Of a stretch of DNA of 64,000 nucleotides, positions 6,635-56,777 are shown one piece after another. The DNA is taken from the NCBI GenBank assembly GCA_902774275.1, contig CACYHN010000010.1:7074-71073 (forward strand). The letters are read 5' to 3'. The notes under the pieces were generated by a model. It saw nothing but the letters and a program-made list of their open reading frames with translations. It made no database searches and was not told where the DNA came from. Source of the DNA: an uncultured Bacteroidales bacterium (GTDB lineage: Bacteria > Bacteroidota > Bacteroidia > Bacteroidales > Bacteroidaceae). How positions within the stretch are numbered: the stretch's first letter is position 1; the number at the start of each line of letters is the position of its first letter. The translations under genes and the position numbers were made by a program.

Positions 6635-6657
6635 GTTATAGTGTTTGTCTTAAAGCG

Positions 6658-7701: not shown

Positions 7702-7730
7702 GCTTTTATGCAATTTCTATATAAGACTTG

Positions 7731-10733: not shown

Positions 10734-10850
10734 ACCTGTAATTTTGATTCGCGAAGATACTCATTTTTTGTAGAGGGTCGGCCTAATTTATAACCTTTCA
10801 CTATTCACTATAAAATTAGTTAACTGCTTCTGTTTTCCCATGGATTGTGT

Positions 10851-10858
10851 TACTTTTG
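10851..10858 (+). promoter_or_regulatory. Candidate -7 promoter box (TACTTTTG) for the GH9 gene
   Basis: tacttttg matches TAnnTTTG and ends 27 nt upstream of the ATG at 10885. Confidence 0.45.
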
Positions 10859-10884
10859 TAAAATAAGTCAACTAACCAAAACTT

Positions 10885-13527: not shown

Positions 13528-13581
13528 TGTTTTATTAATACTTGTTGATTCTTATTTGTAAGCCATTTCATATAATGAGCG

Positions 13582-13589
13582 TACTTTTG
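13582..13589 (+). promoter_or_regulatory. Candidate -7 promoter box (TACTTTTG) for the 13608-29018 operon
   Basis: tacttttg matches TAnnTTTG and lies 18 nt upstream of the ATG at 13608. A TTTG lies about 23 nt further upstream (tatttgtaag). Confidence 0.5.
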
Positions 13590-13607
13590 TGAAAAATACG
13601 ACACTGC

Positions 13608-14489
13608 ATGTCTATATCTATAAAAGGCTTAAGCCATTATTACCCTAACGGCAAGAGAGCGCTGACCGATATTAACCTGGAGATACCTTCAGGCATGTTC
13701 GGCCTTTTGGGACCGAACGGTGCCGGAAAATCCACTCTGATGCGTATTCTGGTTACGTTGATGGAACCCACGGAGGGGCAGATTGATGTGTGTGGATATG
13801 ATATACGCACGCAACGCAAGGAGGTGAGACGCATATTGGGTTATCTGCCACAGGATTTCCGTTTCTTTGCCAAGTACAAGGTGCGTGAATTCCTGGAGTA
13901 TGCTGCTGCACTTACGGGTATGACTAATTCTTCAGAGCGCGGCAAGGCTGTTGACGCCATGCTGGAGCAGGTGGGGCTTTATGAAGCACGTGACCGTTAT
14001 GCACAGAATCTGTCGGGTGGTATGAAGAGACGTCTGGGTATTGCACAGGCTCTCATACACAAGCCTCAGATCCTGGTGGTGGATGAGCCTACTACAGGAC
14101 TTGACCCGGAGGAGCGCATTAGGTTCCGTAACCTGCTTAGTGAGGCCAGCTCAAAGGACACCACGATAATCCTGTCAACACATATAGTAGGTGATATCTC
14201 AAGTTCATGTACGGAGATGGCCATGCTCAATCAGGGCCAGGTCATGTTCAGAGGGTCACCTGCCGGAATGCTCAAGGAGACTGAGGGTAAGGTTTGGCGC
14301 ATGCAGGTAACCAATGAGCAGTATGCTGAGATAAACCAGAAATACGCAGTGATTTCAACCATACCGCATGGTTTGGGATGGGATCTGCAGGTGGTGGCCA
14401 AGGAATCACCCGGTTATGGTGCAGTGAGTTATCCTCCAAATCTGGAGCATGCATATGTATATTTTACTGAAATCAGGGATAAGGAGTGA
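13608..14489 (+). CDS. ABC transporter ATP-binding protein (stand-alone NBD)
   Basis: 293 aa with Walker A GPNGAGKST, signature LSGGMKRR, Walker B ILVVDEPT and H-loop STHI. It is clearly paralogous to the C-terminal domain of the 23589-28286 ORF. Shared strings include SGMFGLLGPNGAGKST, ERIRFRNLL, KVW and PNLE.AY. Confidence 0.92.
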   Translation: MSISIKGLSHYYPNGKRALTDINLEIPSGMFGLLGPNGAGKSTLMRILVTLMEPTEGQIDVCGYDIRTQRKEVRRILGYLPQDFRFFAKYKVREFLEYAAALTGMTNSSERGKAVDAMLEQVGLYEARDRYAQNLSGGMKRRLGIAQALIHKPQILVVDEPTTGLDPEERIRFRNLLSEASSKDTTIILSTHIVGDISSSCTEMAMLNQGQVMFRGSPAGMLKETEGKVWRMQVTNEQYAEINQKYAVISTIPHGLGWDLQVVAKESPGYGAVSYPPNLEHAYVYFTEIRDKE

Positions 14490-17400
14490 TGATGCTTGGA
14501 TTATATAACATACGCATAGTCTCCAAGTACGAGACAAAACTGCTTGTACGTGGCTGGTTCTTCAAGGTGTTTGCCTTCCTGTCACTCCTTGCGGCGTTGA
14601 TTCTGGGTTCCATCTACATACTCACGCAGTTCCCGCAACCCCAGATGATCAACAGGTCGGTCATACCATACATGTTCATGCTTATCATGAATGTGGGGCA
14701 GGCCGTGGTGTCGGTTTTCCTGGCATCGGAGTATCTTAAACGTGACAAACAGCTTGATACATCAGAAGTATTCTACACCCGTCCTCTGAGTAATGCCGAG
14801 TATCTGCTTGGTAAGATGTGGGCTACACTCAAGGTGTTCTTCATACTTGATCTGATAGTAGCGGCAATAGCATTGGTAATGAGTCTTGTCAAGTACGGCT
14901 TTGCACTGGACTATCTGAGTTATATATGGTATTTCCTGCTGTTGTCAGTTCCTACCCTGGTGTTTATAGTAGGTCTGTCAACCACCTTGATGCTTATACT
15001 CAACAACCAGGCCATTACGATGGTTATCCTGCTTGCGTATATAGGCGTGACGCTGTTTTATATAGATAATCTGTACTATTATCTCTTTGATTACATAGGT
15101 TTCAATCTGCCTATGCTCAAGTCTATGATAACGGGCTTCAGCGGACTGGGCAGGCTGATAAATCACAGGTTGTGCTATCTGTTGCTTGGCATAGGGCTCA
15201 TACTTACGGATGTATCGCTGTTCCATCGTCTTGCCAACTCCCGCTACAGCCTGCTGCCGTGGCGCATAGCTGCGGTGCTGTTCCTTGCCGGAGGTCTTTA
15301 TGCCGGATACCGGCACGTACATCTTTACAAGGTGGATGAAAGATTCAGGGCCGATATGGTGGAGCTGAATAACAGGTTCGTAAATGTGGGCAGTGCTGTG
15401 GCCCAGTCATGTGAACTTACCGTAACCCAAAGCGGTGATTCTCTCAGTGTTAGAGCTGATATGACCGTCTCTCCCCGTCAGGATGACACACAGTTGGTGT
15501 TCACTCTCAATCCCGGTTTCAATATTACAAGCATAAGTGCTACCGGACATAAAGTCAGTTTTGAGAGGCTCATGCATCTTATTATCCTTAAATTTGAGGA
15601 TAACCTGCATGCCGATGAACCTGTAAAAATTGTCATGGAGTATAGCGGTAATGCCGATGAACGCATCTGTTATCTGGATATTCAGGCAGACAAGCTGATT
15701 GAGAACAGCAAGGTGCTTTCCATGCTTAACATAGGCAAGCGTTATCTGTTCCAGGACAAAGAGTTTACCATGCTTACGCCTGAGAGTTACTGGTATCCGC
15801 GTCCCGGTGTGGCATATAGTGACCAGAGTCCTGAATGGCAGATGTCATACTTTACTGATTTCAATATCAGCGTGACACCCAATCCCGGTCTGACACCTAT
15901 ATCACAGGGTATGTGCATGGTAAATGCCGACTCTACAACATACACATTCACGCCGGAGTCATCATTGCCGTCAGTATCGCTCATAATAGGAGATTACACC
16001 CCCAAGTCCATAACGGTTGACTCAACCGTCTATACCGTTTGGGAGCTTGGACACTGGAATGATATGTTTGAGACGTTTGATTCCATTCGTGACACGATAC
16101 CTATTGTGTTACGTGACATACGCCGTAATATGGAATTTTCAGCTGATATGGCTTATCCGTTCAAACGTTTCAATATAGTTGAGGTACCGGCACATTTCAC
16201 CTCATACAAGCGTGTGTGGACATCAGTTTATGAGAATCTGCAGCCGGAGATGGTACTGATTCATGAACGAGGCTATGACATGCGTCAATTCCAGTTTGAG
16301 AATATGAAGCGTATGTATGGATTCGGCGGACGTTTCAACCGCCGCAATACCGATATGTCCGAGAAGGAGATTCTCTATAATATCCTTTACAGCGCCATGT
16401 CATTCATGATGCAGTCCAACAGTTTCAGCGGCAGCAGCCGTAACGGACAGTTCAGCATGACACAGGTGGATAATCCTTACTATTACGGACCGCTGTTCTA
16501 CAATTTCAGATATAACATCTACTCATCCAATTGGCCTATGGCAAACCGTATGGTTGAGACTGTCACCAACTCTGCGGGATCGGGTACATCGGAATGGATG
16601 AGGAGAATGAACGGCCTGTCAGAGGATGAGAAGGCTCTGATACTGATGGGTAAGTACGGTTTTGACCGTATCATGTCAGACCCGGAGTGGGAGGACCTGG
16701 CTGATAATGCATTGGCACTCAAGACAAGGGATTTCTTTGCTCCGGTATCGGCTGTGATGGGTTATGAGACTATGGTTGACTCTATAACCGCTAGGAGCAG
16801 AGCTAAAGAGTTTACCAATTCATCATTTGATTCAATTCTGGACTGGGTGCAGAGCTACTCAGGTGTTGACCTGACAGATAAGATTGAGAGTTGGAACCAG
16901 CCGGCACGATTGGCATGCTTCAAGGTAGGTACTCCGCAGATTACAACTGTCACTACCGATACTGCTGATATTTATCAGGCTGAGATAGCGTTTGAGAATA
17001 TATCAGACAATCCGGGTTACGTAAATGTTGAGTTCGTATTCTATGAGATTGAGAATGCCGGTGATGAGGATAAACCCACAAGCATGACAGTTAGCGTAGG
17101 CGCACATGAGACACACAGGCTTGTGACCCACTGGTTCAACTCTCCCGGCTTAATAAGGGTAAACACTATGCTCTCATCAAACCTGCCGCATGATGTGACT
17201 CTTAACAGCGCAGACTGGAGTACATATACCGGCACGGAACTAATCCCTGAGGGTGTTTATGCCGTTCGCGGCGGAGTGGATAATGCGCTTCCGGGTGAGA
17301 TAATAGTTGATAATGAGGATAGTGAACTGTTCTCCCTTTCAAGACCGCTCAGAACCGGTTATCTGTCAAAATGGATAGACAAGTCCAGGGAGAAAAACAA

Positions 17401-17875
17401 TGAGTTCATTTATGAGGGTTTCTCTGACTGGCGTACATACAGCCAGTGGACACTGGTGATAAACCAGAACTTTTACGGTGATTATATACGCTCGGCATAT
17501 ATCATATCCCCGGGTGACGGCTCCCAGTATGCACGATGGAAAATTCCTTTGACTGCTGCAGGAGTCTATGACGTATATTACTACGCGTCTCCGGATATGT
17601 CTGACAACAATAATCGTAACCGTAGGTGGAACAACAATAATAACAATAACAACAATGGCCGCAGGGTTACCAATGACTATAACTTTGAGATAGGGCAGTT
17701 CAACTCAAGTGACCGTGTCTCAATGAACATGTGGCGTGCCGATGAGGGATGGAATCTTTTGGGTACGTTCCGTTTTGAGGCGGATACAGTGAAGGTTACG
17801 CTGAACAACAAATCAGGCGTAAACGTGATTGTGGCTGATGCCGTCAAGTTGGTTAAGAGAGAAAATTCCCGTTAA
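14489..17875 (+). CDS. Large membrane protein: N-terminal ABC-2-type permease-like module (about 7 TM) fused to an ~850-aa extracytoplasmic region (M1-aminopeptidase-like layout, no HExxH) and a C-terminal golvesin-C/CBM-like domain
   Basis: The ATG at 14489 overlaps the upstream TGA by 1 nt (GTG at 14486 is an alternative start). Multiple hydrophobic helices occupy residues ~20-280. The extracytoplasmic part contains no HExxH; the only H-E strings are IHERGY and AHETHR. The C-terminus (YARWKIPLTAAGVYDVYYY ... VIVADAVKLVK) resembles golvesin C-terminal-like domains. A poly-Asn insert lies at ~17603-17665. Confidence 0.6.
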   Translation: MMLGLYNIRIVSKYETKLLVRGWFFKVFAFLSLLAALILGSIYILTQFPQPQMINRSVIPYMFMLIMNVGQAVVSVFLASEYLKRDKQLDTSEVFYTRPLSNAEYLLGKMWATLKVFFILDLIVAAIALVMSLVKYGFALDYLSYIWYFLLLSVPTLVFIVGLSTTLMLILNNQAITMVILLAYIGVTLFYIDNLYYYLFDYIGFNLPMLKSMITGFSGLGRLINHRLCYLLLGIGLILTDVSLFHRLANSRYSLLPWRIAAVLFLAGGLYAGYRHVHLYKVDERFRADMVELNNRFVNVGSAVAQSCELTVTQSGDSLSVRADMTVSPRQDDTQLVFTLNPGFNITSISATGHKVSFERLMHLIILKFEDNLHADEPVKIVMEYSGNADERICYLDIQADKLIENSKVLSMLNIGKRYLFQDKEFTMLTPESYWYPRPGVAYSDQSPEWQMSYFTDFNISVTPNPGLTPISQGMCMVNADSTTYTFTPESSLPSVSLIIGDYTPKSITVDSTVYTVWELGHWNDMFETFDSIRDTIPIVLRDIRRNMEFSADMAYPFKRFNIVEVPAHFTSYKRVWTSVYENLQPEMVLIHERGYDMRQFQFENMKRMYGFGGRFNRRNTDMSEKEILYNILYSAMSFMMQSNSFSGSSRNGQFSMTQVDNPYYYGPLFYNFRYNIYSSNWPMANRMVETVTNSAGSGTSEWMRRMNGLSEDEKALILMGKYGFDRIMSDPEWEDLADNALALKTRDFFAPVSAVMGYETMVDSITARSRAKEFTNSSFDSILDWVQSYSGVDLTDKIESWNQPARLACFKVGTPQITTVTTDTADIYQAEIAFENISDNPGYVNVEFVFYEIENAGDEDKPTSMTVSVGAHETHRLVTHWFNSPGLIRVNTMLSSNLPHDVTLNSADWSTYTGTELIPEGVYAVRGGVDNALPGEIIVDNEDSELFSLSRPLRTGYLSKWIDKSREKNNEFIYEGFSDWRTYSQWTLVINQNFYGDYIRSAYIISPGDGSQYARWKIPLTAAGVYDVYYYASPDMSDNNNRNRRWNNNNNNNNNGRRVTNDYNFEIGQFNSSDRVSMNMWRADEGWNLLGTFRFEADTVKVTLNNKSGVNVIVADAVKLVKRENSR

Positions 17876-17895
17876 GCGAAATAACAGATAAGAAT

Positions 17896-19398
17896 ATGAT
17901 AAAAAGAGATTTTTTAAAGAAGGCAGTTCTTGTGCTTGCAGCCGCCTCGGCCATAGAGACCGGAGCGCAGGCGCAGATTGTCATGACCATGGAGCAGGCT
18001 CTTGAGTACAGTGCCCAGCATAATCCCGATCTGATTAACTCCCGTATGAGTATGGAGCGGTATGAGCAGAACCTGATAGCCCAGAAGGCATCACTCAAGT
18101 CCAGGTTCTCACTTAACCTGGAGCCTCTCTCTTACTCACAGTCCCGTCAGTTTGACAGCCGTTATTCAGACTGGTACACCAACCGCTCGCTGTCATCATC
18201 GGGAACATTCAGTATATCGCAACCCATTATCTGGACCGATGCTACGTTGTCACTCAACAACAGCCTGTCATGGCAGAACAATGAATCGTCAATAGGAGGT
18301 AATACTAACAGCAACCGTGCATTCAGTAACCGTCTTTACCTGAGTCTGACGCAGCCGATATTCACTTACAACAAGACTAAGATGAATATGCGCCAGATAG
18401 AGATGAATTATGAGAATGCCCGCATAAGTTATGCTTTGCAGATGCTGAATGTGGAGCGTAACATAACAAGTCAGTTCTACAGCCTGTTCGTATCACAGCA
18501 GAACCTTGCAATAAGTGAGTCGGAGCTGGAGAATGCAGAGAAGAACTTCAATATAATAAAGGATAAGGTTGATGCTGACCTTGTGACCAAGGATGAGTAC
18601 TATCAGGCAGAACTCAACCTGGCCCAGTCTCGTTCAAGCCTGGAGAACCAGAGGGTGAGCCTTGAGAATGCCAAGGATAATTTCAAACAGGCGCTTGGCA
18701 TACCTCTTGAGGAGGATATCATCGTGGTTTGCGATATCGAGGCTGATCCGGTATATGTGGATATCAACAAAGCTCTTGAGAGCGCCACTACCACCAGACT
18801 GGAACTGCGTCAGCGCCAGATATCGCGTGAGCAGCAGGAGATGTCTATGGTGCAGGTCAAGGATAATGACAGCTTTAGCGGAAATATCTCACTTTCATTG
18901 GGTATCATGGGTGATAGCGAGGATTTCAATCATGTTTATGACAATCCCACCAACAACCCGCGTATAGCTATCTCATTCAGTGTACCTATCTTTGACTGGG
19001 GCGCACGTAAGGCACGTATCAAGGCTGCTGAGATAGAACGCAAGATGTTTGAGCTTAGTGCCGAGGAGGAGCTTAAGAGCATAGAGATGAACGTACGCAG
19101 CACATGCCGTAGCCTGGATAACCTGCTGGGGCAGATATCCATAGCAGAGCAGAGCCAGAAGAACGCACAGCTTACCTATGACCTCAATGAGGAGCGTTAC
19201 CGTAACGGTGAGCTTACGGGTATGCAGATGAACCAGTTCCAGACTCAGCTTTCCAACAGCAAGATGTCATATACACAGGCTATCATAAACTACAAGGTTC
19301 AGCTTCTTAATCTCAAGATACTGACACTTTATGATTTTGAGAAGGATGAGCCGGTGGCTCCCATGACATATGAAAAGAGTAACGACAAAAAGAAATAA
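17896..19398 (+). CDS. TolC-family outer membrane efflux protein
   Basis: 500 aa with a signal peptide (AAASAIETGAQAQ) and two repeats of the OEP-type coiled/beta pattern. The N-terminal segment MEQALEYSAQHNPDL and repeated RYRNGE-like helices are typical. Confidence 0.85.
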   Translation: MIKRDFLKKAVLVLAAASAIETGAQAQIVMTMEQALEYSAQHNPDLINSRMSMERYEQNLIAQKASLKSRFSLNLEPLSYSQSRQFDSRYSDWYTNRSLSSSGTFSISQPIIWTDATLSLNNSLSWQNNESSIGGNTNSNRAFSNRLYLSLTQPIFTYNKTKMNMRQIEMNYENARISYALQMLNVERNITSQFYSLFVSQQNLAISESELENAEKNFNIIKDKVDADLVTKDEYYQAELNLAQSRSSLENQRVSLENAKDNFKQALGIPLEEDIIVVCDIEADPVYVDINKALESATTTRLELRQRQISREQQEMSMVQVKDNDSFSGNISLSLGIMGDSEDFNHVYDNPTNNPRIAISFSVPIFDWGARKARIKAAEIERKMFELSAEEELKSIEMNVRSTCRSLDNLLGQISIAEQSQKNAQLTYDLNEERYRNGELTGMQMNQFQTQLSNSKMSYTQAIINYKVQLLNLKILTLYDFEKDEPVAPMTYEKSNDKKK

Positions 19399-19403
19399 TA
19401 AAA

Positions 19404-20474
19404 ATGAAACAGCATATGAAATCAGGAATCAGCGTACTTACACTGACTGCACTTACACTCCTTATGGCAGGGTGCAGGCAAGAGAACACTATGAACCGTA
19501 ATGAGATACCCACACCGGTATCTGTATCTGACATTACCTATGGATCCGTAAGCAGGATCTTTACCACAAACAGCACGGCTGTGTCAAGTGCCGAGGCTGA
19601 ATTGTCAACTGAGATGGCCGGTAAGTATCATCTCCAGAACAACCCTGCCACCGGTAAGCCTTATAAACTGGGTGACAAGGTCAAGAAAGGCGCCTTGATA
19701 GTACGTATTGAGGATAAGTCATATGAGAACGGCATATCAATAGAGACCAAACGTCTGAACCTGGAGCTGGCTGAGCAGGAGCAGGTCAAGACAAAATCCT
19801 TGTATGACAAGGGGGGGGCCACACTTACTGAGGTCAAGAACTCGGATATCAAGATCATGAATTCACGTCTGGACTATGAGAATGCCCAGATGAATCTTGA
19901 GAAGATGAACATCCGTGCTCCGTTTGACGGCGTGATAGTGAATCTTCCGCATTACTCAAAGGAGGCCAAGGTTAACAGCGGTACATCAGTGGTGACCATC
20001 ATGGATTACAGCTCCATGCTGCTTGAGATCAATCTGCCTGAGAGTGCCATCAATGAGGTGAAAGTGGGCCAGAAGGCTTACATCACTCATTATACTCTGC
20101 CTAAGGACACTATCATGGGTGAGATTACTGAGCTTTCTCCGGCTATCAGCGCTGAGACCCGTACATTTAAAGGTAAGCTTATGATTGATAACAGCAAGCT
20201 GCTTATCAGGCCGGGTATGTTCGTAAAGGCCGATATCGTTACTGAGAGCCACAGCTCAACTATCGTGATACCCAAGAACATTGTACGTAACGAGCGTAAC
20301 AGACGTACCGTGTTTGTTGTTGACCAGGGTATAGCCGTTGCAAAGCAGGTAAGGCTGGGATTGGAAGAGAAGAACAGCGTAGAGGTTCTGAGCGGTCTTG
20401 ATAAGGACGATCAGCTGATTGTACGCGGTTTTGAGACCCTGAGAGACGGTTCAAAGGTTAAGATCCAAAGATAA
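19404..20474 (+). CDS. Efflux RND transporter periplasmic adaptor subunit (MFP/HlyD family), lipoprotein
   Basis: 356 aa with lipobox LLMAGC, a biotinyl-lipoyl-like segment (KGALIVRIED), a coiled-coil hairpin, beta-barrel and MP domains (IRAPFDGVIV, VVDQGIAVAKQVRLG). Confidence 0.88.
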   Translation: MKQHMKSGISVLTLTALTLLMAGCRQENTMNRNEIPTPVSVSDITYGSVSRIFTTNSTAVSSAEAELSTEMAGKYHLQNNPATGKPYKLGDKVKKGALIVRIEDKSYENGISIETKRLNLELAEQEQVKTKSLYDKGGATLTEVKNSDIKIMNSRLDYENAQMNLEKMNIRAPFDGVIVNLPHYSKEAKVNSGTSVVTIMDYSSMLLEINLPESAINEVKVGQKAYITHYTLPKDTIMGEITELSPAISAETRTFKGKLMIDNSKLLIRPGMFVKADIVTESHSSTIVIPKNIVRNERNRRTVFVVDQGIAVAKQVRLGLEEKNSVEVLSGLDKDDQLIVRGFETLRDGSKVKIQR

Positions 20475-20487
20475 CACAGAGAAAAGG

Positions 20488-23400
20488 ATGAAAAGACTGG
20501 TTAGTTGGGCGGTCAGGAATCCGGTCACTGTCACTATGGCGGTGCTGGCCATTCTGCTGCTCGGAAAGATATCATATGACAGGCTGAGCGTGGAGCTGCT
20601 TCCAAGCATGAACAGCCCCCGCCTGTTTGTTGAGATAGACGCTGGCGAGCGTCCGCCAGAAGAGATTGAGAAACAGTTCGTGCGCAGCATGGAGTCTCAG
20701 ATTGCCCGTCAGAGTGACGTGCGCAATGTATCATCGGTAGTTAAGGTGGGTACAGCCAGACTGACGGTAGAGTACGCATGGAGAAAGAATATGGATGAGG
20801 CGTTCCTGGATCTGGAGAAGGCCATGAGCAGTTTCTCTCAGGACAGCCGTGTGACAGACCTCAGAATCTCCCAGAAGGATCCTACCACTGCTCCCATAAT
20901 GATAATAGGTTTCTCCAATCCGGATATCGCCGATATGGCCGAGCTCCGCAAGGTGGCTGACTCATATGTGTGCAATGAACTGATGAGGGTTGAGGGTGTG
21001 GCTGATGTGTCACTGGCAGGCGATGAGTTTACCAACTTGGTGATAGAGGCTGATCCTTACAAACTGCAGGCTTTTGGCATAACCGTTGAGAACATATCGT
21101 CACGTATCCAGGAGAACAACCAGAGGGTATCGGGCGGAAGGATAACGGAACAGGGTTACCAGTATCTTGTGACCGGTTCAAATACGCTGACTGATGAGAC
21201 TGCATTCGGTAATATCATAGTAGGATACAAGAATACCGAGTCTGCACAGCCGGGAGCGCAGCAGGTGGGTGAGTTTGCATCGGCAAGCATGGCACCTATC
21301 TATCTGCGTGACGTGGCAACCATACACTTTGAGAACCGTGAACCGGAGAACATTGTAAGGGTTAACGGCAACCGCAGTATTGGCATCTCTGTATTCAAGG
21401 AGATGGATTACAATACTGTAAAGGCTGTTGAAGGTATAAAGACCAGTCTTACCAAGATACAGAAGTCGCTGCCCGGATATGATTTCAGGATAATAAGTGA
21501 CCAGGCCACTTTCATTAACGATTCAATAGGTGAGGTCAAGAACAGCGCCATGCTGGGTATCCTGCTGGCGGTGATAGTACTGTTCGTGTTCCTGCGCAGG
21601 GTGGGGACAACCCTTATCGTGGCCGTTTCAATACCTGTTTCCATAATAGCCACTTTCAACCTGATGTTCTTTAGCGGACTTACCATTAACATCCTTACGT
21701 TGGGAGGTCTTGCGCTTGGAGCGGGTATGCTGGTGGATAATGCCATTGTGGTTATCGAGAGTATATTCAGGAATCAGGAACGCGGCCTTTCAGTGCGTGA
21801 TGCCGCAATTACAGGTACATCTGAGGTGGGTGGTGCCGTATCGGCATCAACTCTTACTACCATTGTGGTATTCCTGCCTATAGTCTATCTGCACGGTGCT
21901 ACGGGTGAACTTTTCAAGGATGAGGCGTGGACTGTTACGTTCTCACTTCTCTCATCACTGTTTGTAGCTATCCTGGTGATACCTACGCTGTATGAGCGTA
22001 TATTCGGCAGGAAGAAGGTTGCTCCGCTCAAGAACTTCAGTTCAGTGAACATAAAGGGGTACTCTTCATTCCTTAAGAAACTTGTGGAGAAGCGTTGGTG
22101 GGTGATCTTGTGCTCAGTAATCCTGGTGGCAGGAACCATATTCCTGCTGCCTTATGTGGGTACCGAGTTCATGCCCAAGACTGATGCCAATACCATAAAC
22201 GTGAAGATCCGTATGGCTGAAGGTACAAGCCTGGACCGTACGTCATCTACCCTTGAGAACCTGGAGAATCTGGTGTTTGACCTGTCTGAGGATCCTGAGT
22301 GTGTGATATACACTCATGTGGGACCGGGTGCATCGGCACAGAACATGGATTTTGAGGGTGAGAATACTGCTACCATGAAGATTCAGCTCTCTAACGCGTC
22401 AGCAGTTTCTCCTGATTATCTCACGGAGGTGCTGGCTGCCTATATAGACGGCGTGGAGGGTATGGAACTTTCATTTACCCAGGATGACAACTCGCTGGGT
22501 TCACTGATGGGTACTGAGGATGCTCCTCTTGTAGTTGAGATAAAGGGTGAGGATCTGGATCTGCTGGCTTCACTGACAGATCAGGTTAAAGCTGCTGTTG
22601 ACTCAATTGACTGCCTGTATAATGTTGAGAGCTCGCTGGCTGGCGGTGCACCTGAAATCATCATCACGGTTGACCGTGCCCTGGCCGGTATGAACAACAT
22701 AAACGTATCAACCATAATCACACAGATACAGCAGCACTTGGCCGGTCGTGAAGCCGGACAGATGGACTACAAGGGTGATATGAGAGATATCAGCATCAAG
22801 GTTCCGGGCGTGTCTCTGGCAGACCTTAACAGTATGGTCATAACATCGGGCCAGAAGGATTTCCGTCTTGTTGAGCTGGCCCAGATAAGTGAGAGTACTG
22901 CACCAAAGGAGATTTATCGTCTCAATCAGAACCGTGTGACACGCGTTACGGCCGATATCGATGAGTCAGTATCACTTGATAAAGCTGCTCAGAGAGTAAG
23001 AGACGCCGTATCAGGAATAGAACTGCCGCAGAACTACTCCATTAACGTGACAGGTGAGGAGGAGCGCCGAGCAGAGTCCATGAATAGCCTACTGTTGGCA
23101 CTCGTGCTCTCTATCGTGCTGGTATATATGGTCATGGCATCGCAGTTTGAATCACTGCTGCATCCGTTTACCATCCTCCTTACCATTCCTCTGGCTTTGG
23201 TGGGCGCGGTACTGATGTTCCTCATCACAGGTATAACGGTGAATATCATGGGTATCATAGGTATGGTGATGCTGGCCGGTATCGCGGTAAACAACTCCAT
23301 CATCCTGGTGGACCGTATAGGACAGCTCAAGGAGTCAGGTCTGAGCCTTACCGATGCCATAGCAGAGGCAGGGCAGCAGCGTATCCGTCCTATCCTGATG

Positions 23401-23589
23401 ACCAGTCTTACCACAATCCTGGCACTTGTGCCAATGGCACTCGGACTGGGTGATGGCGCATCACTGAGTTCACCTATGGCAATTGCCGTGATAGGCGGTC
23501 TTTTCACTTCAACTCTTTTGAGTCTGGTTGTGATACCTTGTGTTTATTATGTATTTGAAAGCGCCAAAATAAGAATCACTGGAAAGTAA
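20488..23589 (+). CDS. Efflux RND transporter permease subunit (AcrB/AcrD/AcrF superfamily), paralog 1
   Basis: 1033 aa with 12-TM AcrB architecture. The TM4 motif is GAGMLVDNAIVVIE, the TM10 motif is AGIAVNNSIILVD, and the TM11 region is RIRPILMTSLTT. Confidence 0.92.
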   Translation: MKRLVSWAVRNPVTVTMAVLAILLLGKISYDRLSVELLPSMNSPRLFVEIDAGERPPEEIEKQFVRSMESQIARQSDVRNVSSVVKVGTARLTVEYAWRKNMDEAFLDLEKAMSSFSQDSRVTDLRISQKDPTTAPIMIIGFSNPDIADMAELRKVADSYVCNELMRVEGVADVSLAGDEFTNLVIEADPYKLQAFGITVENISSRIQENNQRVSGGRITEQGYQYLVTGSNTLTDETAFGNIIVGYKNTESAQPGAQQVGEFASASMAPIYLRDVATIHFENREPENIVRVNGNRSIGISVFKEMDYNTVKAVEGIKTSLTKIQKSLPGYDFRIISDQATFINDSIGEVKNSAMLGILLAVIVLFVFLRRVGTTLIVAVSIPVSIIATFNLMFFSGLTINILTLGGLALGAGMLVDNAIVVIESIFRNQERGLSVRDAAITGTSEVGGAVSASTLTTIVVFLPIVYLHGATGELFKDEAWTVTFSLLSSLFVAILVIPTLYERIFGRKKVAPLKNFSSVNIKGYSSFLKKLVEKRWWVILCSVILVAGTIFLLPYVGTEFMPKTDANTINVKIRMAEGTSLDRTSSTLENLENLVFDLSEDPECVIYTHVGPGASAQNMDFEGENTATMKIQLSNASAVSPDYLTEVLAAYIDGVEGMELSFTQDDNSLGSLMGTEDAPLVVEIKGEDLDLLASLTDQVKAAVDSIDCLYNVESSLAGGAPEIIITVDRALAGMNNINVSTIITQIQQHLAGREAGQMDYKGDMRDISIKVPGVSLADLNSMVITSGQKDFRLVELAQISESTAPKEIYRLNQNRVTRVTADIDESVSLDKAAQRVRDAVSGIELPQNYSINVTGEEERRAESMNSLLLALVLSIVLVYMVMASQFESLLHPFTILLTIPLALVGAVLMFLITGITVNIMGIIGMVMLAGIAVNNSIILVDRIGQLKESGLSLTDAIAEAGQQRIRPILMTSLTTILALVPMALGLGDGASLSSPMAIAVIGGLFTSTLLSLVVIPCVYYVFESAKIRITGK

Positions 23590-26500
23590 TGAAGTCATTT
23601 ATTGACAGAAGGGTAACTATCTGCATGCTTCTGGTGGCGCTCACGCTGCTGGGCTATTTCTCGTACAAGCAGTTGCCGGTTGAGTTGCTGCCCAATACTG
23701 AGTTGCCTCAGCTTTATATTACCGCCTCGTCCAGAAGTGACCTCACTCCGTCTTATATGGAGCAGCAGGTGGTAATCCCGCTTGAAGGAGCCATAAGCGC
23801 TGTAGGTGGTGTGGAGAACATGGAATCAACGGTATCGGGCCGACAGGGTTCCATCAGGGTTGATTTCAAGAGAGGCACCAATCTCAAGATGACCACCGTG
23901 AAACTGCAGGAGAAGATAAGCTCCATACGGGGCGATTTTCCATCGGATGTCACGGTGAATGTCCAGCAGGCTAACCTCAATGGCATAAGTAACCAGTTCA
24001 TGTCACTGCAGGTGCGCGGATCAGGTGGTGTTGACCGTCTGAGAGCCATCGTTGACAAGGATGTGGTACCTCGTTTGGAGAGTATAGACGGCATAGCAGG
24101 TGTAACTGTTTATGGTGGTCGTGTCAAATCCATAGAGATACGCTCCAACCCGGAGGCTATGCAGGCATTGCACATATCCAATGCACAGATAAGCCAGGCA
24201 TTGAGCCAGTATAATCAGGAGCGTACTTTCCTGGGCTTTATAAGTGAGCCTGACAAAAAATACTATGTGCAGCTTGACGCCAACTATGATGATGTGTCAC
24301 AGGTGGAGAACCTGGTGGTTGCCAATGGACCTGTATACCTTAAGAATGTGGCCACGGTGTTCTTTGACTATAAGGAAGAGACTACCATAAGCCGTGTTAA
24401 CGGTATGGATGCCATCTCCGTATCTTTGGTCAACGGTGCCGGAGAGAATCTTCTTGAACTCTCCAATAGAGCCCTTAAGCGTATTGATGAGATAAACCGT
24501 GAAGTGGCCAACCAGGATTTGCAGCTTGTGGTGCAGTCAAACTCGGCAGACCAGATAAGCAACAACATATCACAGATAGTCAAATTGGCTTTGATGGGTG
24601 GTATGCTGGCTATTCTGGTGCTCTGGTTTTTCCTGCGCAACCTGAGTCTGGTATTCTTTATTGCATTGTCAATACCTGTCTCAATATTATCGGCATTCAA
24701 TGTATTTTATGCTGCAGATATATCCATAAACACCCTTACCCTTATAGGTATGGCGCTGGCTATAGGTATGTTGTTGGATAGCAGTATAGTTGTGCTGGAG
24801 AACATATACCGTCTGGCTTCCATGGGAATGCCGCCGCGATTGGCGGCTCTGCAGGGCGTAAAGGAGGTGCGTAAGGCGCTCTTGGCATCAACACTTACTA
24901 CAATAACTGTGTTCCTGCCGTTTGTGTTCTCTGATGAGCCGATGATCAAACTATTGGGTAGGAATATAGGCTTTTCAATCATCTCTACGCTGATATTCTC
25001 ACTCTTGGTGGCTGTAACGTTCATACCTATGGCAACTGCTGCCATGATGGAACGCGGCGGAGGCGGCAACAGCGTCTTCTTCCGTAAGATGTCCATTCAT
25101 GACCGTCCGCTGCAGATGTATTCAACGCTGCTCAAGACCTGTCTGCGCAAGCCCGGACCAACGGTCGGCACTGCGGTTGCCGTTCTGGTTATTGCATTCA
25201 TATTCGCTCTGTCGCGCAATACCGGTCAGAACCGTCAGGTGGACAGTGACAGGATCAATATCAACATCACCATGCCAAGCGGCAGCACTCTTGATGATAC
25301 TGATGAGGCGACGGCAACTCTTGAGTCACGTTTGGATAGCCTGCCTCAGAAAAAGGATGTGATAAGCCGCATTCAGGAAGATCAGGCCTCAATTACCTTG
25401 ACTCTACAGGATGGTTATAACAAAAAGGGTGGTGTAACCATAAGCCAACTTGTTGAACAGCTGAGTGATGAGCTTACTCTTGATGGCGATATAGACGTGC
25501 GTGTTACTCCAGGCTATGCCCGTGGAAACCAGAGTGCATCAGGACTCAGTTCACTGACACGTTTCATGAGCGTTCTGGGCGTGGGTGACAATACGGAGAG
25601 AATAGTTGTCAAGGGTTCTGATACCGAGACCATGCGTGTGGTTTCCAATAACCTAAGGTATTATCTGGAACAGTTGGAGTTTGTTCGTGACGTTAGGGTT
25701 GACAATCCCGGTGGACGTCGTGAGGTACAGCTTACCTTTGATCCTGTAGCGTTGGCATCATACAATATCACCAACCAGGCAATTACACAGGCTCTGGGTT
25801 CCCTGAACCGTACCACCAGTACCGGTACCAGCTTCAAGGTGGGTACTGATGAGTATGACATTGTCATAATGGATGATATCACTGAGGAAGAGGAGGAGAT
25901 GGCACGCTGGGAGAAAACCATGGATGACCTGCGTCGTGTCATTGTTACTGATGCAAACGGCGGTACTCATGAGCTGCAGCAGATAGCAAGCATCCGCCTG
26001 AGCCGTGGCCCGTCGGAAGTAAGGCGTGTTAACCGTGACCGCCGTGTAAATGTAACATACGCCATTTCGCAGAGTGAGGATCTGCCTAAAGATGTGCTTG
26101 ATGATTATCATGACCAAATTGATGACCTGATAGCCAATTACAACCTGCCTTCAGGCCTGGCTCTTGAGGTTCAGCGCGGTGATGACTCTACCAGTGAGTT
26201 CAAGTTCCTGATATTGGCATCTATCATACTGATATTCATGATACTGGCATCGGCCTTTGAGTCACTTACCACACCTCTGGTACTGCTGTTCTCCATACCG
26301 TTGGCAGCCATTGGCTCATTGCTGGCGCTGCTGCTGTCAGGCAACAGCCTGATGAATGCCAATACCCTGACTGGATTCCTTATCCTGCTGGGTATAGTGG
26401 TTAACAACGGTATCATCCTGATAGACTACTCATCTACATTACGCCGCAGAGGCTATGGCCGTATGAGAGCTATCATGACCAGCGGTTATTCACGTCTCAG

Positions 26501-28286
26501 GCCTATCTGCATAACCACCATCACTACCATCGTTACGCTTATTCCCATGGCTATGGGTGATGATGAGTATGCCGGTGCCATAGGCGCTCCGTTTGCGCTT
26601 ACCGTAATAGGCGGACTCACGTTCTCTGCCATACTTACACTGCTGCTCATACCTACGCTCTACATATCATTTGAGAATATGAGGGCCTGGTATAAGGGCT
26701 TGGGCCGCTATACCCATATCCTGCATGCCATATTGTTCATTGTGGGTCTGATAGTGATCTTTACAAGTGTGGACGGAGTGTTCATGATACTTCTTTATAT
26801 AATCATTCTGTCTGTTGCCATTCCTGGAGTGACATATTTCATAAAGAGCTCTGTAAGGATAGCACGTAAGGATATCGTAAAGGAGAATGAGCCTATTGTC
26901 ATTGAGGTGCGTAACCTTGTCAAGGTATATGACTGGTACAGCCTGTTCCTGCGCCAGTGGCGTAGCGGACTGAACATACGCCGCAGGTTAGGGCTTTCAC
27001 GCAGCTTCCATCACGCAAAGGATTTTATAAGCCTGTTGTGGCAGGTTGTGGTGTTCGGATATACAGGATATCTGGCCGGATGGTACTTTGAGAAGGAGTT
27101 CTGGATACTGCTTATGACCATCATTACGCTGGCTGGCATAAACAATATACTTAAGGCTGTTCTGGAGTATATTGGATACAAGTTCAAGAGTGGAGCAAGA
27201 GCAGTATTAATTATAAAGAAGATTCTCTACTGGGCATTGCCGATATGTGCAATGATATTCCTCAGCCACAAGATTGAGAGCAAGGGATTCATGGTCTTCA
27301 TTGCGGTTGTCTGGATTCTTGGACTCTGCATCCGCAAGACATCTGACTATCTCTATGCAAACAATATAAACGTGGAGCGTCTTAAGGGTGAGACCGCCGG
27401 AATGCGTCGGGCATGGTTCGTGTTCGTTAAGAGCATTCCTATCATCGGCAAACGCAAGAAACCGTTCAAGGCTCTGCGTGGCGTCACGTTTGAGATTCAC
27501 AGCGGTATGTTCGGCTTGCTTGGCCCCAATGGAGCCGGTAAATCCACGTTCATGCGCATAGTTACCGGTATCCTGCGCCAAAGCTACGGAACGGTGTTCA
27601 TCAACGGCATGGATACCCTCAAGTACAGGGAGGAGTTGCAGAGCCTTATCGGATTCCTGCCTCAGGAGTTCGGTATGTATGAGTCCATGAGCGCGTGGGA
27701 TTTCCTCAACTATCAGGCTATCCTTAAGGGTATTACTGATGAGAAAACGCGTCGTGAGAGACTGGAGTACGTGCTTACATCGGTACATATGTATGAACAG
27801 CGTAACTCTGAGATAGGTTCATTCTCCGGCGGTATGAAGCAGCGCATAGGCATTGCACTCATCCTGCTTAACCTGCCGCGGATCCTTGTGGTCGATGAGC
27901 CTACTGCAGGTCTTGATCCAAGAGAGCGCATCAGGTTCCGTAACCTGCTGGTTGAGTTGAGCCGTGACCGTATAGTGATATTCTCTACCCATATCATTGA
28001 GGATATAGCCAGCTCATGTAATCAGGTTGTGGTCATTGAAAAGGGCTCGCTCAAGTATTTTGGCCTGCCTTCTGAGATGATAAATCTGGCTAAGGACAAG
28101 GTATGGCTGTTTGACATTGAGGCATCACGCTTAGCTGAGCTGGATGAGAAGCTTATTGCAAATCATATCCAGGATGGTGACAAGATCAAGGTGCGTTACA
28201 TATCGCCAGTATGCCCATGGCCTGGTGCTGAGCTTGCTGAGCCAAACCTTGAGGATGCATACCTATGCTTATTGAAAAACCTTTAA
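23589..28286 (+). CDS. Chimeric protein: complete RND permease (aa ~1-1040) + 2 TM helices + ABC nucleotide-binding domain split by a ~180-aa insertion of about 4 TM helices
   Basis: One uninterrupted 1565-codon ORF; its ATG overlaps the upstream TAA by 1 nt. RND motifs are AIGMLLDSSIVVLEN, LGIVVNNGIILID and RLRPICITT. NBD motifs are IVIEVRNLVKVY (beta1), GPNGAGKST, FSGGMKQR, ILVVDEPT and STHI. Confidence 0.8.
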   Translation: MKSFIDRRVTICMLLVALTLLGYFSYKQLPVELLPNTELPQLYITASSRSDLTPSYMEQQVVIPLEGAISAVGGVENMESTVSGRQGSIRVDFKRGTNLKMTTVKLQEKISSIRGDFPSDVTVNVQQANLNGISNQFMSLQVRGSGGVDRLRAIVDKDVVPRLESIDGIAGVTVYGGRVKSIEIRSNPEAMQALHISNAQISQALSQYNQERTFLGFISEPDKKYYVQLDANYDDVSQVENLVVANGPVYLKNVATVFFDYKEETTISRVNGMDAISVSLVNGAGENLLELSNRALKRIDEINREVANQDLQLVVQSNSADQISNNISQIVKLALMGGMLAILVLWFFLRNLSLVFFIALSIPVSILSAFNVFYAADISINTLTLIGMALAIGMLLDSSIVVLENIYRLASMGMPPRLAALQGVKEVRKALLASTLTTITVFLPFVFSDEPMIKLLGRNIGFSIISTLIFSLLVAVTFIPMATAAMMERGGGGNSVFFRKMSIHDRPLQMYSTLLKTCLRKPGPTVGTAVAVLVIAFIFALSRNTGQNRQVDSDRININITMPSGSTLDDTDEATATLESRLDSLPQKKDVISRIQEDQASITLTLQDGYNKKGGVTISQLVEQLSDELTLDGDIDVRVTPGYARGNQSASGLSSLTRFMSVLGVGDNTERIVVKGSDTETMRVVSNNLRYYLEQLEFVRDVRVDNPGGRREVQLTFDPVALASYNITNQAITQALGSLNRTTSTGTSFKVGTDEYDIVIMDDITEEEEEMARWEKTMDDLRRVIVTDANGGTHELQQIASIRLSRGPSEVRRVNRDRRVNVTYAISQSEDLPKDVLDDYHDQIDDLIANYNLPSGLALEVQRGDDSTSEFKFLILASIILIFMILASAFESLTTPLVLLFSIPLAAIGSLLALLLSGNSLMNANTLTGFLILLGIVVNNGIILIDYSSTLRRRGYGRMRAIMTSGYSRLRPICITTITTIVTLIPMAMGDDEYAGAIGAPFALTVIGGLTFSAILTLLLIPTLYISFENMRAWYKGLGRYTHILHAILFIVGLIVIFTSVDGVFMILLYIIILSVAIPGVTYFIKSSVRIARKDIVKENEPIVIEVRNLVKVYDWYSLFLRQWRSGLNIRRRLGLSRSFHHAKDFISLLWQVVVFGYTGYLAGWYFEKEFWILLMTIITLAGINNILKAVLEYIGYKFKSGARAVLIIKKILYWALPICAMIFLSHKIESKGFMVFIAVVWILGLCIRKTSDYLYANNINVERLKGETAGMRRAWFVFVKSIPIIGKRKKPFKALRGVTFEIHSGMFGLLGPNGAGKSTFMRIVTGILRQSYGTVFINGMDTLKYREELQSLIGFLPQEFGMYESMSAWDFLNYQAILKGITDEKTRRERLEYVLTSVHMYEQRNSEIGSFSGGMKQRIGIALILLNLPRILVVDEPTAGLDPRERIRFRNLLVELSRDRIVIFSTHIIEDIASSCNQVVVIEKGSLKYFGLPSEMINLAKDKVWLFDIEASRLAELDEKLIANHIQDGDKIKVRYISPVCPWPGAELAEPNLEDAYLCLLKNL

Positions 28287-28301
28287 AATGGAATTTGAAC
28301 T

Positions 28302-29018
28302 ATGTCAGCATTAGATACAGTTAAATCTTTCGGTAAGTTGTGCGGTTACAATATGAGGATCATATTTTCCGGCAAGTTCATCTGGTTCCTGCTGGTGGGC
28401 CTGGCCCTGTTTTTCTTCCTCATGTTCTCAGCAGCATCCAGAGGCACGGAGTTGAGTCACAGTATGGTTTACGGCCAGCTTACCATACCGGGCCTGCTGC
28501 TGGTGTTCTATCCGGCATGTTTCGGAATTCAGAATGATGCTGATCACCGTATCCTGGAACTCCTGTTCGGCATACCTAACTACATGTATAAGGTATGGCT
28601 GTTCCGCCTGGTGATGATATATGTGGAGGTATATCTAATTCTTGTGGTATACGCCTTCCTGGCCAGGATCCTGCTCTATCCGGTACAACCGTTCATAATG
28701 GCGGCGCACCTTATGATTCCGGTCATGCTGTTCGGTAACCTGGCATTCCTGTACTCAACGCTCATCCGCAACGGAAACGCTGCCGCCGTACTCTCTGTAC
28801 TCACGGTGATACTGGCGCTGATTCTTGGTAATACTCAGCTTGTTGAGAACAAGGTATGGGATGTAACCATAAACCCGTATGAGGAGCCGGAGAACATCAA
28901 TGCTGCCATCTGGAGCGTAATCCTGCTAAAGAACCGCATCCTCATGGTAGTAGCCGGCATCATCTTCCTGATGTCAGGCCTGCTAGGCCTACAGAACCGC
29001 GGCAAGTTCCTGGGATGA
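28302..29018 (+). CDS. Integral membrane protein, ABC-2-type permease-like (about 6 TM)
   Basis: 238 aa, very hydrophobic, with about six predicted helices. It is the last gene of the operon, 15 nt after the chimera. I recognised no specific family motif. Confidence 0.55.
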   Translation: MSALDTVKSFGKLCGYNMRIIFSGKFIWFLLVGLALFFFLMFSAASRGTELSHSMVYGQLTIPGLLLVFYPACFGIQNDADHRILELLFGIPNYMYKVWLFRLVMIYVEVYLILVVYAFLARILLYPVQPFIMAAHLMIPVMLFGNLAFLYSTLIRNGNAAAVLSVLTVILALILGNTQLVENKVWDVTINPYEEPENINAAIWSVILLKNRILMVVAGIIFLMSGLLGLQNRGKFLG

Positions 29019-29030
29019 AACTAAATAAAT

Positions 29031-29044
29031 TGAGAATTGAAAAT
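29031..29044. repeat. Heptamer units TTGAGAA-TTGAAAA (left arm of an inverted pair flanking the terminator)
   Basis: Read directly. The reverse complement ttttcaattctcaa matches 29115-29128 (ttttcaattttcaa) with one G.U-compatible difference. Confidence 0.7.
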
Positions 29045-29077
29045 GGCCATCCGGTGCGTAGAAGAGCCCGCGTCATT

Positions 29078-29110
29078 AAAAGACCTTCGGAATTTCTCCG
29101 AAGGTCTTTT
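29078..29110. terminator. Bidirectional intrinsic terminator between the convergent operon end (+) and purM (-)
   Basis: The 11-bp perfect stem is agaccttcgga (29081-29091) / tccgaaggtct (29097-29107) with loop atttc. It is flanked by aaa upstream and tttt downstream. Confidence 0.85.
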
Positions 29111-29114
29111 ATAA

Positions 29115-29128
29115 TTTTCAATTTTCAA
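29115..29128. repeat. Heptamer units TTTTCAA x2 (right arm of the inverted pair)
   Basis: Read directly; it immediately precedes the purM stop (29129-29131). Confidence 0.7.
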
Positions 29129-37284: not shown

Positions 37285-37358
37285 TGGAGGTACCTGGCGG
37301 ACTCGAACCGCCGTACTCGGTTTTGCAGACCGATACCTAGCCGCTCGGTCAAGGTACC
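37285..37358 (-). tRNA. tRNA-Cys (anticodon GCA), CCA encoded
   Basis: Folded by hand as 74 nt: GGTACCT-TG-ACCGAGCGGCTAGGTA-TCGGT-CTGCAAA-ACCGA-GTAC-GGCGG-TTCGAGT-CCGCC-AGGTACC-T-CCA. The acceptor stem is 7 bp, the anticodon loop CTGCAAA carries GCA, the T-loop is TTCGAGT, and discriminator U73 is typical of tRNA-Cys. Confidence 0.9.
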
Positions 37359-51807: not shown

Positions 51808-51826
51808 AATTGCAAAAAGGATTAAG

Positions 51827-55741: not shown

Positions 55742-55758
55742 AAGCAGGGTTATAGGTT

Positions 55759-56695: not shown

Positions 56696-56718
56696 AACAG
56701 TGTATGTTTATTTACTGA

Positions 56719-56726: not shown

Positions 56727-56777
56727 ATTGCCAAATCAACAAATGTCAAGGATTAGGCGCTGCAAAACTGTTGCAAA

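Follow-up and report, generated by a model that had tools for sequence, protein, structure and literature searches.

An RND permease fused to an ABC ATPase within a predicted seven-gene exporter operon of Bacteroidales

The stretch of DNA considered here, a window of 64,000 nt on contig CACYHN010000010.1 of an uncultured Bacteroidales bacterium (all window coordinates count from its first letter), carries a block of seven genes in which the parts of a resistance-nodulation-division (RND) efflux pump are encoded together with those of an ATP-binding cassette (ABC) transporter. These genes, named g1 to g7 in 5' to 3' order, are all open reading frames (ORFs) of the + strand and extend from 13608 to 29018. 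They encode a free ABC ATPase, or nucleotide-binding domain (NBD; g1), a permease with a very large periplasmic domain (g2), a TolC-like outer-membrane factor (OMF; g3), a periplasmic adaptor of the membrane fusion protein (MFP) type (g4), an RND permease (g5), a second RND permease that continues into an ABC ATPase (g6), and a small protein with six hydrophobic segments (g7). A previous sequence-only reading had proposed the same seven ORFs; their positions were reproduced exactly, and their labels were upheld by Pfam and NCBIfam. The junction measures -4 nt between g1 and g2 (or -1 nt, as it had given, when g2 is started from the ATG at 14489), and the following ones agree with its values of 20, 5, 13, -1 and 15 nt, the g5/g6 junction being a TAATG overlap.

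The joining of the two transporter types is most direct in g6, a single ORF of 1565 aa (23589-28286) in which ACR_tran covers aa 2-1028 and ABC_tran aa 1296-1440. Its RND moiety (23589-26678; aa 1-1030; ACR_tran 9e-165) is followed by a hairpin of two transmembrane (TM) helices, whose topology is predicted from hydropathy and charge distribution (26715-26858; aa 1043-1090). Next comes the motif PIVIEVRNLVKVYDW (26892-26936; aa 1102-1116), in which K1112 and Y1114 are invariant and which appears to be the displaced strand beta1 and A-loop of the NBD. An insertion of about four TM helices, predicted from hydropathy and the positive-inside rule, then lies between beta1 and beta2 (27006-27338; aa ~1140-1250), and the NBD core with its C-terminal extension completes the protein (27456-28286; aa 1290-1565; ABC_tran 1e-24). 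A short cytoplasmic segment separates the 2-TM hairpin from the ~4-TM insertion, and the latter is poorly conserved in sequence and has no match in Pfam.

Among 33 diverse fusions, the sole conserved motif of the linker is I-x-[IV]-x-N-[LV]-x-K-x-Y (aa 1104-1114), which from its position and pattern we take to be the first beta-strand of the NBD with the aromatic residue of the A-loop (compare Tyr11 of MJ0796). A composite of g6 residues 1102-1117 and 1291-1565 aligns end to end with g1, and the alignment with the GldA profile starts at its position 1 for g1 but only at position 16 for g6. Pairwise local alignment of g1 residues 1-16 with the g6 linker gave a score that was not significant (26 vs 19.7 +/- 3.1 for shuffled sequences) and chose a linker segment other than the beta1 motif, so that the beta1 assignment rests on family conservation and on the composite alignment. 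The fused NBD thus appears to be split by an insertion that, in the long class of fusions to which g6 belongs, is embedded in the membrane.

Proteins with this architecture are widespread. With g6 as query, more than 120 clusters (at 90% identity) were retrieved, reaching down to 55% identity; apart from a single one of 1729 aa they measure 1544-1580 aa, and every one of them holds both ACR_tran and ABC_tran. They are named "efflux RND transporter permease subunit" or, by JGI, "AcrB/ABC-type ... ATPase subunit", and nothing in the database annotations suggests that this architecture had been recognized. An exhaustive profile-free search was also carried out with the C-terminal 536 residues of g6, the matches being clustered at 50% identity and the top 150 considered. 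The TM+NBD module was found almost exclusively in proteins of ~1550-1600 aa, with at least 28 representatives and module identity down to ~32%. This search also yielded a second, short fusion class of ~1390-1450 aa with six representatives (P0164, P0192, P0196, P0202, P0212 and P0215), which lacks the 2-TM hairpin and has a soluble linker. In this class the same motif stands ahead of the NBD core, with a soluble insertion of ~50 residues between beta1 and beta2 and no extra TM helices. The fusion is carried by Bacteroidaceae, Rikenellaceae, Porphyromonadaceae and other Bacteroidota, by Microbulbifer isolates and a Pseudomonadales metagenome-assembled genome (MAG), and by Acidobacteriota; the proteins of cultured Microbulbifer are present in RefSeq (WP_368456647.1 and WP_367152229.1). 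Judged from sequence, the RND-NBD fusion is real and ancient, and occurs in three phyla. A scan of genome contigs seeded with the TM+NBD alignment relied on Walker A/B patterns, and most of its matches were ABC ATPases of a generic kind; only loci L005, L006, L008, L009 and L012 were directly useful, and the generic loci exposed the parent family of the ABC half described below. One short-class locus, L006 (6521-10834), has a different gene order, with an RND permease, a 922-aa protein without a Pfam match, the RND-NBD fusion and an OMF.

The free ATPase g1 (13608-14489; 293 aa; ABC_tran 2e-33) is of the DrrA/ABCA class and ends in a C-terminal extension of ~70 aa (KVW...PNLE.AY). The two NBDs had been proposed to be paralogs from a set of common motifs, and this holds: they are 42% identical over 268 aa, and all of the motifs quoted are found in both. 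Walker A, Q-loop, signature, Walker B D-E and H-loop are kept in each of them, and the Walker A Lys, the Q-loop, an SGGM signature, the Walker B D-E and the H-loop are invariant in 13 diverse fusions, so far as sequence can tell neither ATP site looking degenerate. The match to TIGR01188 (drrA) reaches 201 bits for g1 and 167 bits for g6, both below the cutoff of 312, and the GldA equivalog TIGR03522 gives 196.8 and 172.9 bits, respectively, vs a cutoff of 402.6. The nearest solved NBDs to g1 are those of the lipid transporters ABCA4, ABCA3, ABCA1 and ABCA7, at ~200 bits vs ~135 bits for the next group, a likeness that may be read as a class-level hint toward lipid-like substrates.

On the side of the efflux pump, g3 (17896-19398; 500 aa) is a TolC-like OMF with a signal peptide and no lipobox. 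It matches PF02321 (OEP) in three stretches (1e-47; 162.8 bits vs a cutoff of 22) and TIGR01844 below its cutoff (86 bits). The adaptor g4 (19404-20474) is a lipoprotein of 356 aa with the lipobox LMAGC and an HlyD_D23 domain, and its match to TIGR01730 (RND_mfp) reaches 184.8 bits, above the cutoff of 94.9. The RND permease g5 (20488-23589; 1033 aa; 12 TM) matches ACR_tran over residues 5-1023 (3e-215), and g5 and g6 each span the whole 1021-position profile. The full tripartite set of two RND permeases, MFP and OMF that had been claimed for this locus is therefore established by these family matches. The best match of g5 in the Protein Data Bank (PDB) is MdtB (305 bits), and the scores for the MdtB and MdtC equivalogs place it outside both (355 bits vs 1584 for NF007798, 379 bits vs 1774 for NF007905). 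Likewise, neither permease falls within the multidrug RND subfamily NF033617 (594 bits for g5 and 483 bits for g6 vs a cutoff of 1250).

Both permeases depart from the canonical proton relay of HAE-1 transporters, whose residues we take to be D407, D408, K940 and R971 in the numbering of AcrB. The equivalents of D407 and R971 are kept, that of D408 is Asn in g5 and Ser in the g6 of the window, and that of K940 is Asn in both, so that g5 reads D-N (TM4), N (TM10) and R (TM11), with the changes DD to DN and K to N already visible in its alignment to MdtB, and g6 and its relatives read D-(N/S), N and R. The TM4 Asp is D417 in g5 (within GAGMLVDN) and D397 in g6. The altered relay was found in nearly all members checked, including both paralogs, representatives across phyla and the short class; 33 fusions were compared for the g6 columns.

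The second gene of the block (14486/14489-17875, the stop codon ending at 17875) encodes 1129 aa with TM helices at the N-terminus and a Golvesin_C domain at the C-terminus. In an AlphaFold2 (AF2) model (local confidence, pLDDT, 77.6; predicted TM-score, pTM, 0.73), its N-terminal membrane domain (14486-15379; aa 1-298) consists of an amphipathic helix and seven TM helices, which may be described as a 6-TM ABC-2 core with one extra helix that would place the C-terminus outside. The sequence-only reading had seen an ABC-2-type transmembrane domain (TMD) here. The window protein alone is sub-threshold (E 0.008), and six of six orthologs match ABC2_membrane_2 (best 2e-6), with matches to ABC2_membrane_3 and ABC2_membrane_4 too. 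A hidden Markov model (HMM) of the g2 TMD family matches TMD1 and TMD2 of the parent-family permeases of loci L022 and L024 (E ~1e-6). These results support the earlier assignment; a PDB profile search with the g2 TMD gave no match.

Beyond the membrane, g2 is predicted to carry a periplasmic domain with the fold of an M1 aminopeptidase (15383-17275; aa ~300-930). Foldseek comparison of the modelled ectodomain with the PDB ranks ERAP1, IRAP and APN best, with E ~4e-17 over ~660 columns at ~10% identity. The zinc site is absent: 67 orthologs hold no HEXXH, no GXMEN and no conserved His in 528-800, and Pfam Peptidase_M1 does not match g2. On the strength of the model, the ectodomain is a pseudo-peptidase. 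The protein ends in a beta-sandwich (17441-17854; aa 986-1123) that matches Golvesin_C (PF25275; 36-37 bits, above the cutoff of 31.6) and resembles families 6, 35 and 36 of the carbohydrate-binding modules (CBM). The CBM6/35/36-like family to which Golvesin_C corresponds includes the Bacteroides lectins Cbeg4/5 (PMC9166713), and the suggestion that the C-terminus of g2 is carbohydrate-binding-like is reasonable in this light. Some g2 orthologs are named "xanthan lyase" by NCBI, apparently only from this CBM-like domain. Across loci, evolutionary rates differ greatly: identity is highest for the NBDs (median of 71% for g1) and lowest for the g2 ectodomain (median of 36%).

A likely source of the ABC half was found among free-standing ABC transporters. 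The closest free-standing relatives of the NBD are ~40% identical, C-terminal extension included, and each is followed by a permease of 727-1204 aa with ABC-2 TMDs and a Peptidase_M1 domain; HEXXH is kept in three of four such permeases. A single NBD gene stands beside each permease of this kind, and such pairs occur with no RND gene nearby in Terriglobales, Ferrimonas and Clostridia. Family 3.A.1.145 of the Transporter Classification (TC) was founded on Q1D520 of M. xanthus, a protein of 1200 aa with 13 transmembrane segments (TMS) that combines ABC-2 and M1 peptidase regions and whose function is uncharacterized (PMC3924187). With NBDs ~40% identical, the profile match of the g2 TMD, the M1 fold of g2 and a TMS count of 13 that equals 7 (g2) plus 6 (g7), the ABC half of the operon looks to be derived from this peptidase-fused ABC-2 family. 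It differs from it in that the permease is here apparently made by two genes, the zinc site is lost, a CBM-like domain is added, and the NBD is duplicated, with one copy fused to an RND permease and the whole module placed within an RND/MFP/OMF operon. It looks as if a 3.A.1.145-like ancestor had its 13 TMS split between g2 and g7, lost the peptidase, gained a lectin-like domain and had its NBD duplicated.

The last gene, g7 (28302-29018; 238 aa), always follows g6 and has six hydrophobic segments. Its invariant E86-x5-P92 after TM2 mirrors E94-x5-P100 of g2. Size, topology, position and the E-x5-P motif fit a second ABC-2-type TMD, and g7 is a candidate for this role, as yet unproven.

That the seven genes form a conserved operon is strongly supported, within what genome sequences can tell, by their packing, by the absence of strong internal terminators and by synteny. 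Terminator-like matches within the block are weak and at chance level (15 vs 12.6 expected). A bidirectional intrinsic-terminator-like hairpin follows g7 at 29077-29111, between convergent genes, and is the strongest terminator-like site in 10500-30000. It had been described as a perfect 11-bp stem; it is indeed perfect, but the stem is of 15 bp (GC core of ~10-11 bp), with a loop of 5 nt and runs of A and of T on its two sides. At the other end, a TAnnTTTG box (TACTTTTG, 13582-13589, + strand), similar to the Bacteroidota -7 element, lies 18 nt 5' of the g1 ATG, where it had been reported, and is a candidate promoter element. Over the whole window, copies of the motif number 45, hardly more than the 33.6 +/- 5.8 expected, and six + strand copies fall within the operon itself. 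Since its frequency is near chance, the box alone is weak evidence, and its value as a sign of a promoter was downgraded; this is why operon status rests mainly on packing, terminators and synteny. The claim of a single transcription unit is thus backed in so far as tight packing, a collinear gene order and the lack of a strong internal terminator can speak for it.

The gene order was followed across genomes in a metagenome scan seeded on g2-specific peptides, which yielded 80 loci, many of them human-gut contigs, with g2 ectodomain identities of 35%-97%. The operon order is respected by 76 of these loci, 47 being complete and collinear (complete meaning, given the limit of the flanks, g1 through the g6 linker) and 29 cut by contig ends in register. 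The entire order from g1 to g7 recurs at loci with g6 identities of 69%, 61% and 57%, followed by unrelated downstream genes. A collinear order was likewise observed in L001-L005, L009, L012, L085 and L086, and in every suitably long locus examined, with differing flanks. L008, from a marine Pseudomonadales MAG (Gammaproteobacteria), keeps a core made of a g2-like gene, an MFP, an RND permease, an RND-TM-NBD fusion of 1612 aa and, overlapping the latter, the gene of a 231-aa membrane protein. The pairing seen in g4-g5-g6, with a single MFP and two adjacent paralogous RND permeases, is kept in all related loci. The sequence-only reading had offered to be refuted by orthologous loci that routinely split these genes; the comparison was made, and with 76 of 80 metagenome loci and the long loci examined all collinear, the refutation failed.

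Several known exporters resemble parts of this system. MdtABC-TolC of E. coli and MuxABC-OpmB of P. aeruginosa likewise combine one MFP, two adjacent paralogous 12-TM RND permeases and an OMF in an operon, and MdtB is the best structural match of g5, yet the equivalog scores do not make them orthologs. Here, moreover, one of the two permeases is longer by ~535 residues, which comprise membrane helices and an ABC ATPase, the RND moieties share only 28% identity, and the D408 equivalent (Asn, or Ser in the g6 of the window) and the K940 equivalent (Asn) are changed. RND heterotrimers have been documented only rarely, and a 2021 review sorts tripartite pumps into RND-, ABC- and MFS-type, the latter standing for the major facilitator superfamily (PMC8277102). 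MacAB-TolC and DevBCA share with the locus the genes for an ATP-driven inner-membrane part, an MFP and a TolC-like OMF, which together give an envelope-spanning assembly. MacB is a type VII ABC protein with a 4-TM FtsX-like TMD whose periplasmic domain lies between TM1 and TM2. By comparison, MacAB is devoid of an RND component, g2 has a 7-TM ABC-2 TMD with a C-terminal ectodomain, and none of the seven proteins matches FtsX or MacB_PCD. ABCA1/3/4/7, NosDFY and GldAFG resemble the ABC half in joining an ABC-2-type TMD to a very large extracytoplasmic domain and in the C-terminal extension of the NBD, GldA and NosF being the next-best named NBD relatives of g1; this likeness is at class level only. 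The ectodomain here is M1-like, unlike the extracellular domain of ABCA proteins, NosD or GldG, and none of those systems is fused to an RND permease. A description of an RND-ABC fusion was not found in the literature searched, which left out most subscription journals, so that a prior description is possible. Four points go beyond what the sequence-only reading had contained: the six extra TM helices of g6 with its apparently split NBD, the M1 pseudo-peptidase of g2, the relation to TC 3.A.1.145, and the changed relay.

The best reading of the locus, to which we give slightly better than an even chance, is that of a single composite exporter that spans the envelope and has an ATP-driven ABC-2 module (type V, derived from TC 3.A.1.145) linked covalently to a tripartite RND pump. 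The NBD of g1 would pair head to tail with that of g6, and g2 and g7 would supply two TMDs, mirroring the single-chain 13-TMS permeases of the parent family. The permeases g5 and g6 would assemble into a heterotrimer, most simply with two copies of g5 and one of g6 as in MdtB2C, which would provide one ABC module per RND trimer, and g4 and g3 would build the periplasmic and outer-membrane duct. Upon ATP hydrolysis, the ABC-2 module would extract or flip an amphiphilic substrate, perhaps a glycoconjugate or a peptide-bearing lipid, from the cytoplasm or the inner leaflet. The ectodomain of g2, with its non-catalytic M1 cavity and its lectin-like domain, would hold or channel this substrate until it is taken over by the adjacent RND porter domain and expelled through the OMF, the RND remaining proton-coupled via the Asp of TM4 and the Arg of TM11, both conserved. 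The overall process would amount to a hard-wired two-stage relay across both membranes. The sequence-only reading had imagined the ABC and RND parts as built to work as one machine; the conserved fusion and the 76 collinear loci speak for this idea, but the part that it gave to g7 is unproven, and the hint that it drew from a neighbouring glycoside hydrolase family 9 (GH9) gene is not borne out.

Several observations weigh against such a composite exporter. What the sequences show is the fusion, the identities of the domains, the intact motifs and their conservation; the NBD heterodimer, the g2/g7 pairing of TMDs, the g5/g6 heterotrimer, the stoichiometry and the path of the substrate are what we infer, the relay mechanism being drawn by analogy, and the hints on the substrate given by the CBM-like domain and the ABCA-like NBD point to classes only. 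For g7, searches against Pfam (E up to 10), NCBIfam and PDB profiles gave no significant match, nor did hhalign comparison with the g2 TMD or HMM comparison with 3.A.1.145-type permeases. Its AF2 model, built from a shallow alignment, is of low confidence (pLDDT 60.9) and has no Foldseek match with E < 0.8, NosY having the highest TM-scores among the non-significant ones. Since the short-linker class does without the six extra TM helices, these are not needed for the joining of RND and NBD. The top match to the TM+NBD module, P0121 (526 aa with a Met start), covers residues 14-536 of the module and could represent its unfused form, or else come from a gene that is split or truncated. Nor is proton coupling certain, because the equivalents of D408 and K940 are missing from the RND relay. 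Finally, four of the 80 metagenome loci are broken, on short low-coverage contigs that run into unrelated genes. In these human-gut or other metagenome contigs, the operon stops at g4 (L115), at g2 (L120), within g6 after its first 320 aa (L129) or at g3 (L165), and the unrelated continuation includes small lipoprotein paralogs and a MurA-like gene; these loci could be assembly chimeras or natural deletion variants.

The same observations leave room for other explanations. The g1/g6 ATPase might act, via the tether helices and the periplasmic domain of g2, on the conformational cycle of the RND trimer or on the formation of the MFP/OMF duct, by gating, priming or powering it, in which case the ABC part would be a mechanotransducer or regulator, as in MacB, LolCDE or NosDFY, rather than a second pathway. 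The NBD is indeed attached covalently to the C-terminus of the RND permease, with membrane helices between the two in the long class and a soluble linker in the short one, both RND permeases lack two of the four AcrB relay residues, the ectodomain of g2 is a scaffold-like, non-catalytic pseudo-enzyme, and NosY, the only ABC-2 structure resembling g7 (not significantly), belongs to a mechanotransducing complex. Such ATP assistance is nevertheless unlikely: the TM4 Asp and the TM11 Arg are kept in nearly all examined members of both paralogs, which argues that proton coupling persists, g2 retains a genuine exporter-type ABC-2 TMD, and no precedent is known for an ATP-driven RND pump. We regard as a little more unlikely still that the locus encodes two separate, co-expressed transporters, a pump made of RND, MFP and OMF driven by the proton-motive force and a TC 3.A.1.145-like ABC-2 exporter serving the same pathway or stress, with the fusion securing co-localization or stoichiometry and no mechanistic coupling. 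Both halves have free-standing relatives, such as the pairs of NBD and ABC-2/M1 permease without RND, paired RND operons such as MdtBC lack ABC parts (PMC8277102), and the g6 linker is poorly conserved in sequence. However, the fusion is kept in three phyla and in both the long and the short linker class, which implies selection for physical linkage; the parent family, judged from the single NBD gene beside each free-standing permease, uses one NBD gene, whereas here the NBD is duplicated with one copy always on the RND permease; and in 76 of 80 loci the seven genes are never apart. An assembly or frameshift artefact behind the 1565-aa ORF, or a decaying pseudogene, was considered as well, given that the exact g6 protein of the window is absent from the gene-position index and that four low-coverage metagenome contigs have broken operons. 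We rejected it as having a practically negligible probability, since the same uninterrupted ORF of ~1550-1600 aa is found in hundreds of independent assemblies from several sources, the RefSeq proteins of cultured Microbulbifer included, with invariant catalytic motifs.

Tripartite efflux machines are classed by a single energy source and a single type of inner-membrane transporter. A conserved protein in which a secondary transporter (RND) and a primary one (ABC) are naturally joined would break this classification. It is possible, at somewhat less than an even chance, that the locus represents a fourth class of tripartite exporter, in addition to the RND, ABC and MFS types, a covalent ABC-RND hybrid using both ATP and the proton gradient, be it as a relay or as an ATP-driven or ATP-gated RND pump. 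The operon would then offer an experimental system for the question of how cytoplasmic or inner-leaflet substrates reach RND pumps that capture from the periplasm, and of whether pumps cooperate physically. It would also place the uncharacterized peptidase-fused ABC-2 family TC 3.A.1.145 in a biological context for the first time, and would exemplify the non-catalytic use of an M1 aminopeptidase fold in the periplasm. Among Bacteroidales, the operon occurs frequently in metagenomes of the rumen and the human gut, and it is found in marine Gammaproteobacteria and Acidobacteriota as well; its gut occurrence makes it ecologically relevant, and cultured Microbulbifer carriers make it tractable. 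Possible roles include the handling of bile salts or antimicrobials and the export of envelope lipids or glycolipids.

The nearest named relatives are "Bacteroidaceae bacterium" MAGs. It is only in close relatives that the GH9 gene adjoins the operon (present in L086, absent in L085). The hint on the substrate that had been drawn from this gene does not survive the comparison, and GH9 was rejected as a clue, being a lineage-local neighbour. The distance from the end of GH9 to g1 is 14 nt in L086 (7105-7120) vs 80 nt in the window (13527-13608), and so short a gap suggests that GH9 may be co-transcribed with the operon in the L086 lineage. The remaining neighbours of the operon are housekeeping genes. 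LpxA, LpxC-FabZ and LpxD are encoded at 4473-7713 on the - strand of the window, ~6 kb upstream of the operon, and genes of envelope biogenesis are also found near it elsewhere: an LpxL-like acyltransferase and LptE in L001, BamA in L003, and MlaD and TatC in L004. This envelope-gene neighbourhood could be a coincidence among housekeeping genes or a weak hint toward envelope lipids.

Farther from the operon, a run of very large genes occupies 49120-60828 on the - strand. Two of the encoded proteins, of 1304 and 1340 aa, begin with CarboxypepD_reg-like domains and otherwise lack a Pfam match at E <= 1e-5, and another, of 912 aa, has a sub-threshold match to an MG2 domain (29 bits vs a cutoff of 32.8). 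The sole Rfam match in the window is a tRNA gene at 37288-37358 (- strand). The functions of CoaBC and DUF4835 usually reside in separate genes; at 42377-44458 (- strand), an ORF of 693 aa holds CoaBC (Flavoprotein and DFP) and a full-length DUF4835 in one frame, and may be a fusion.

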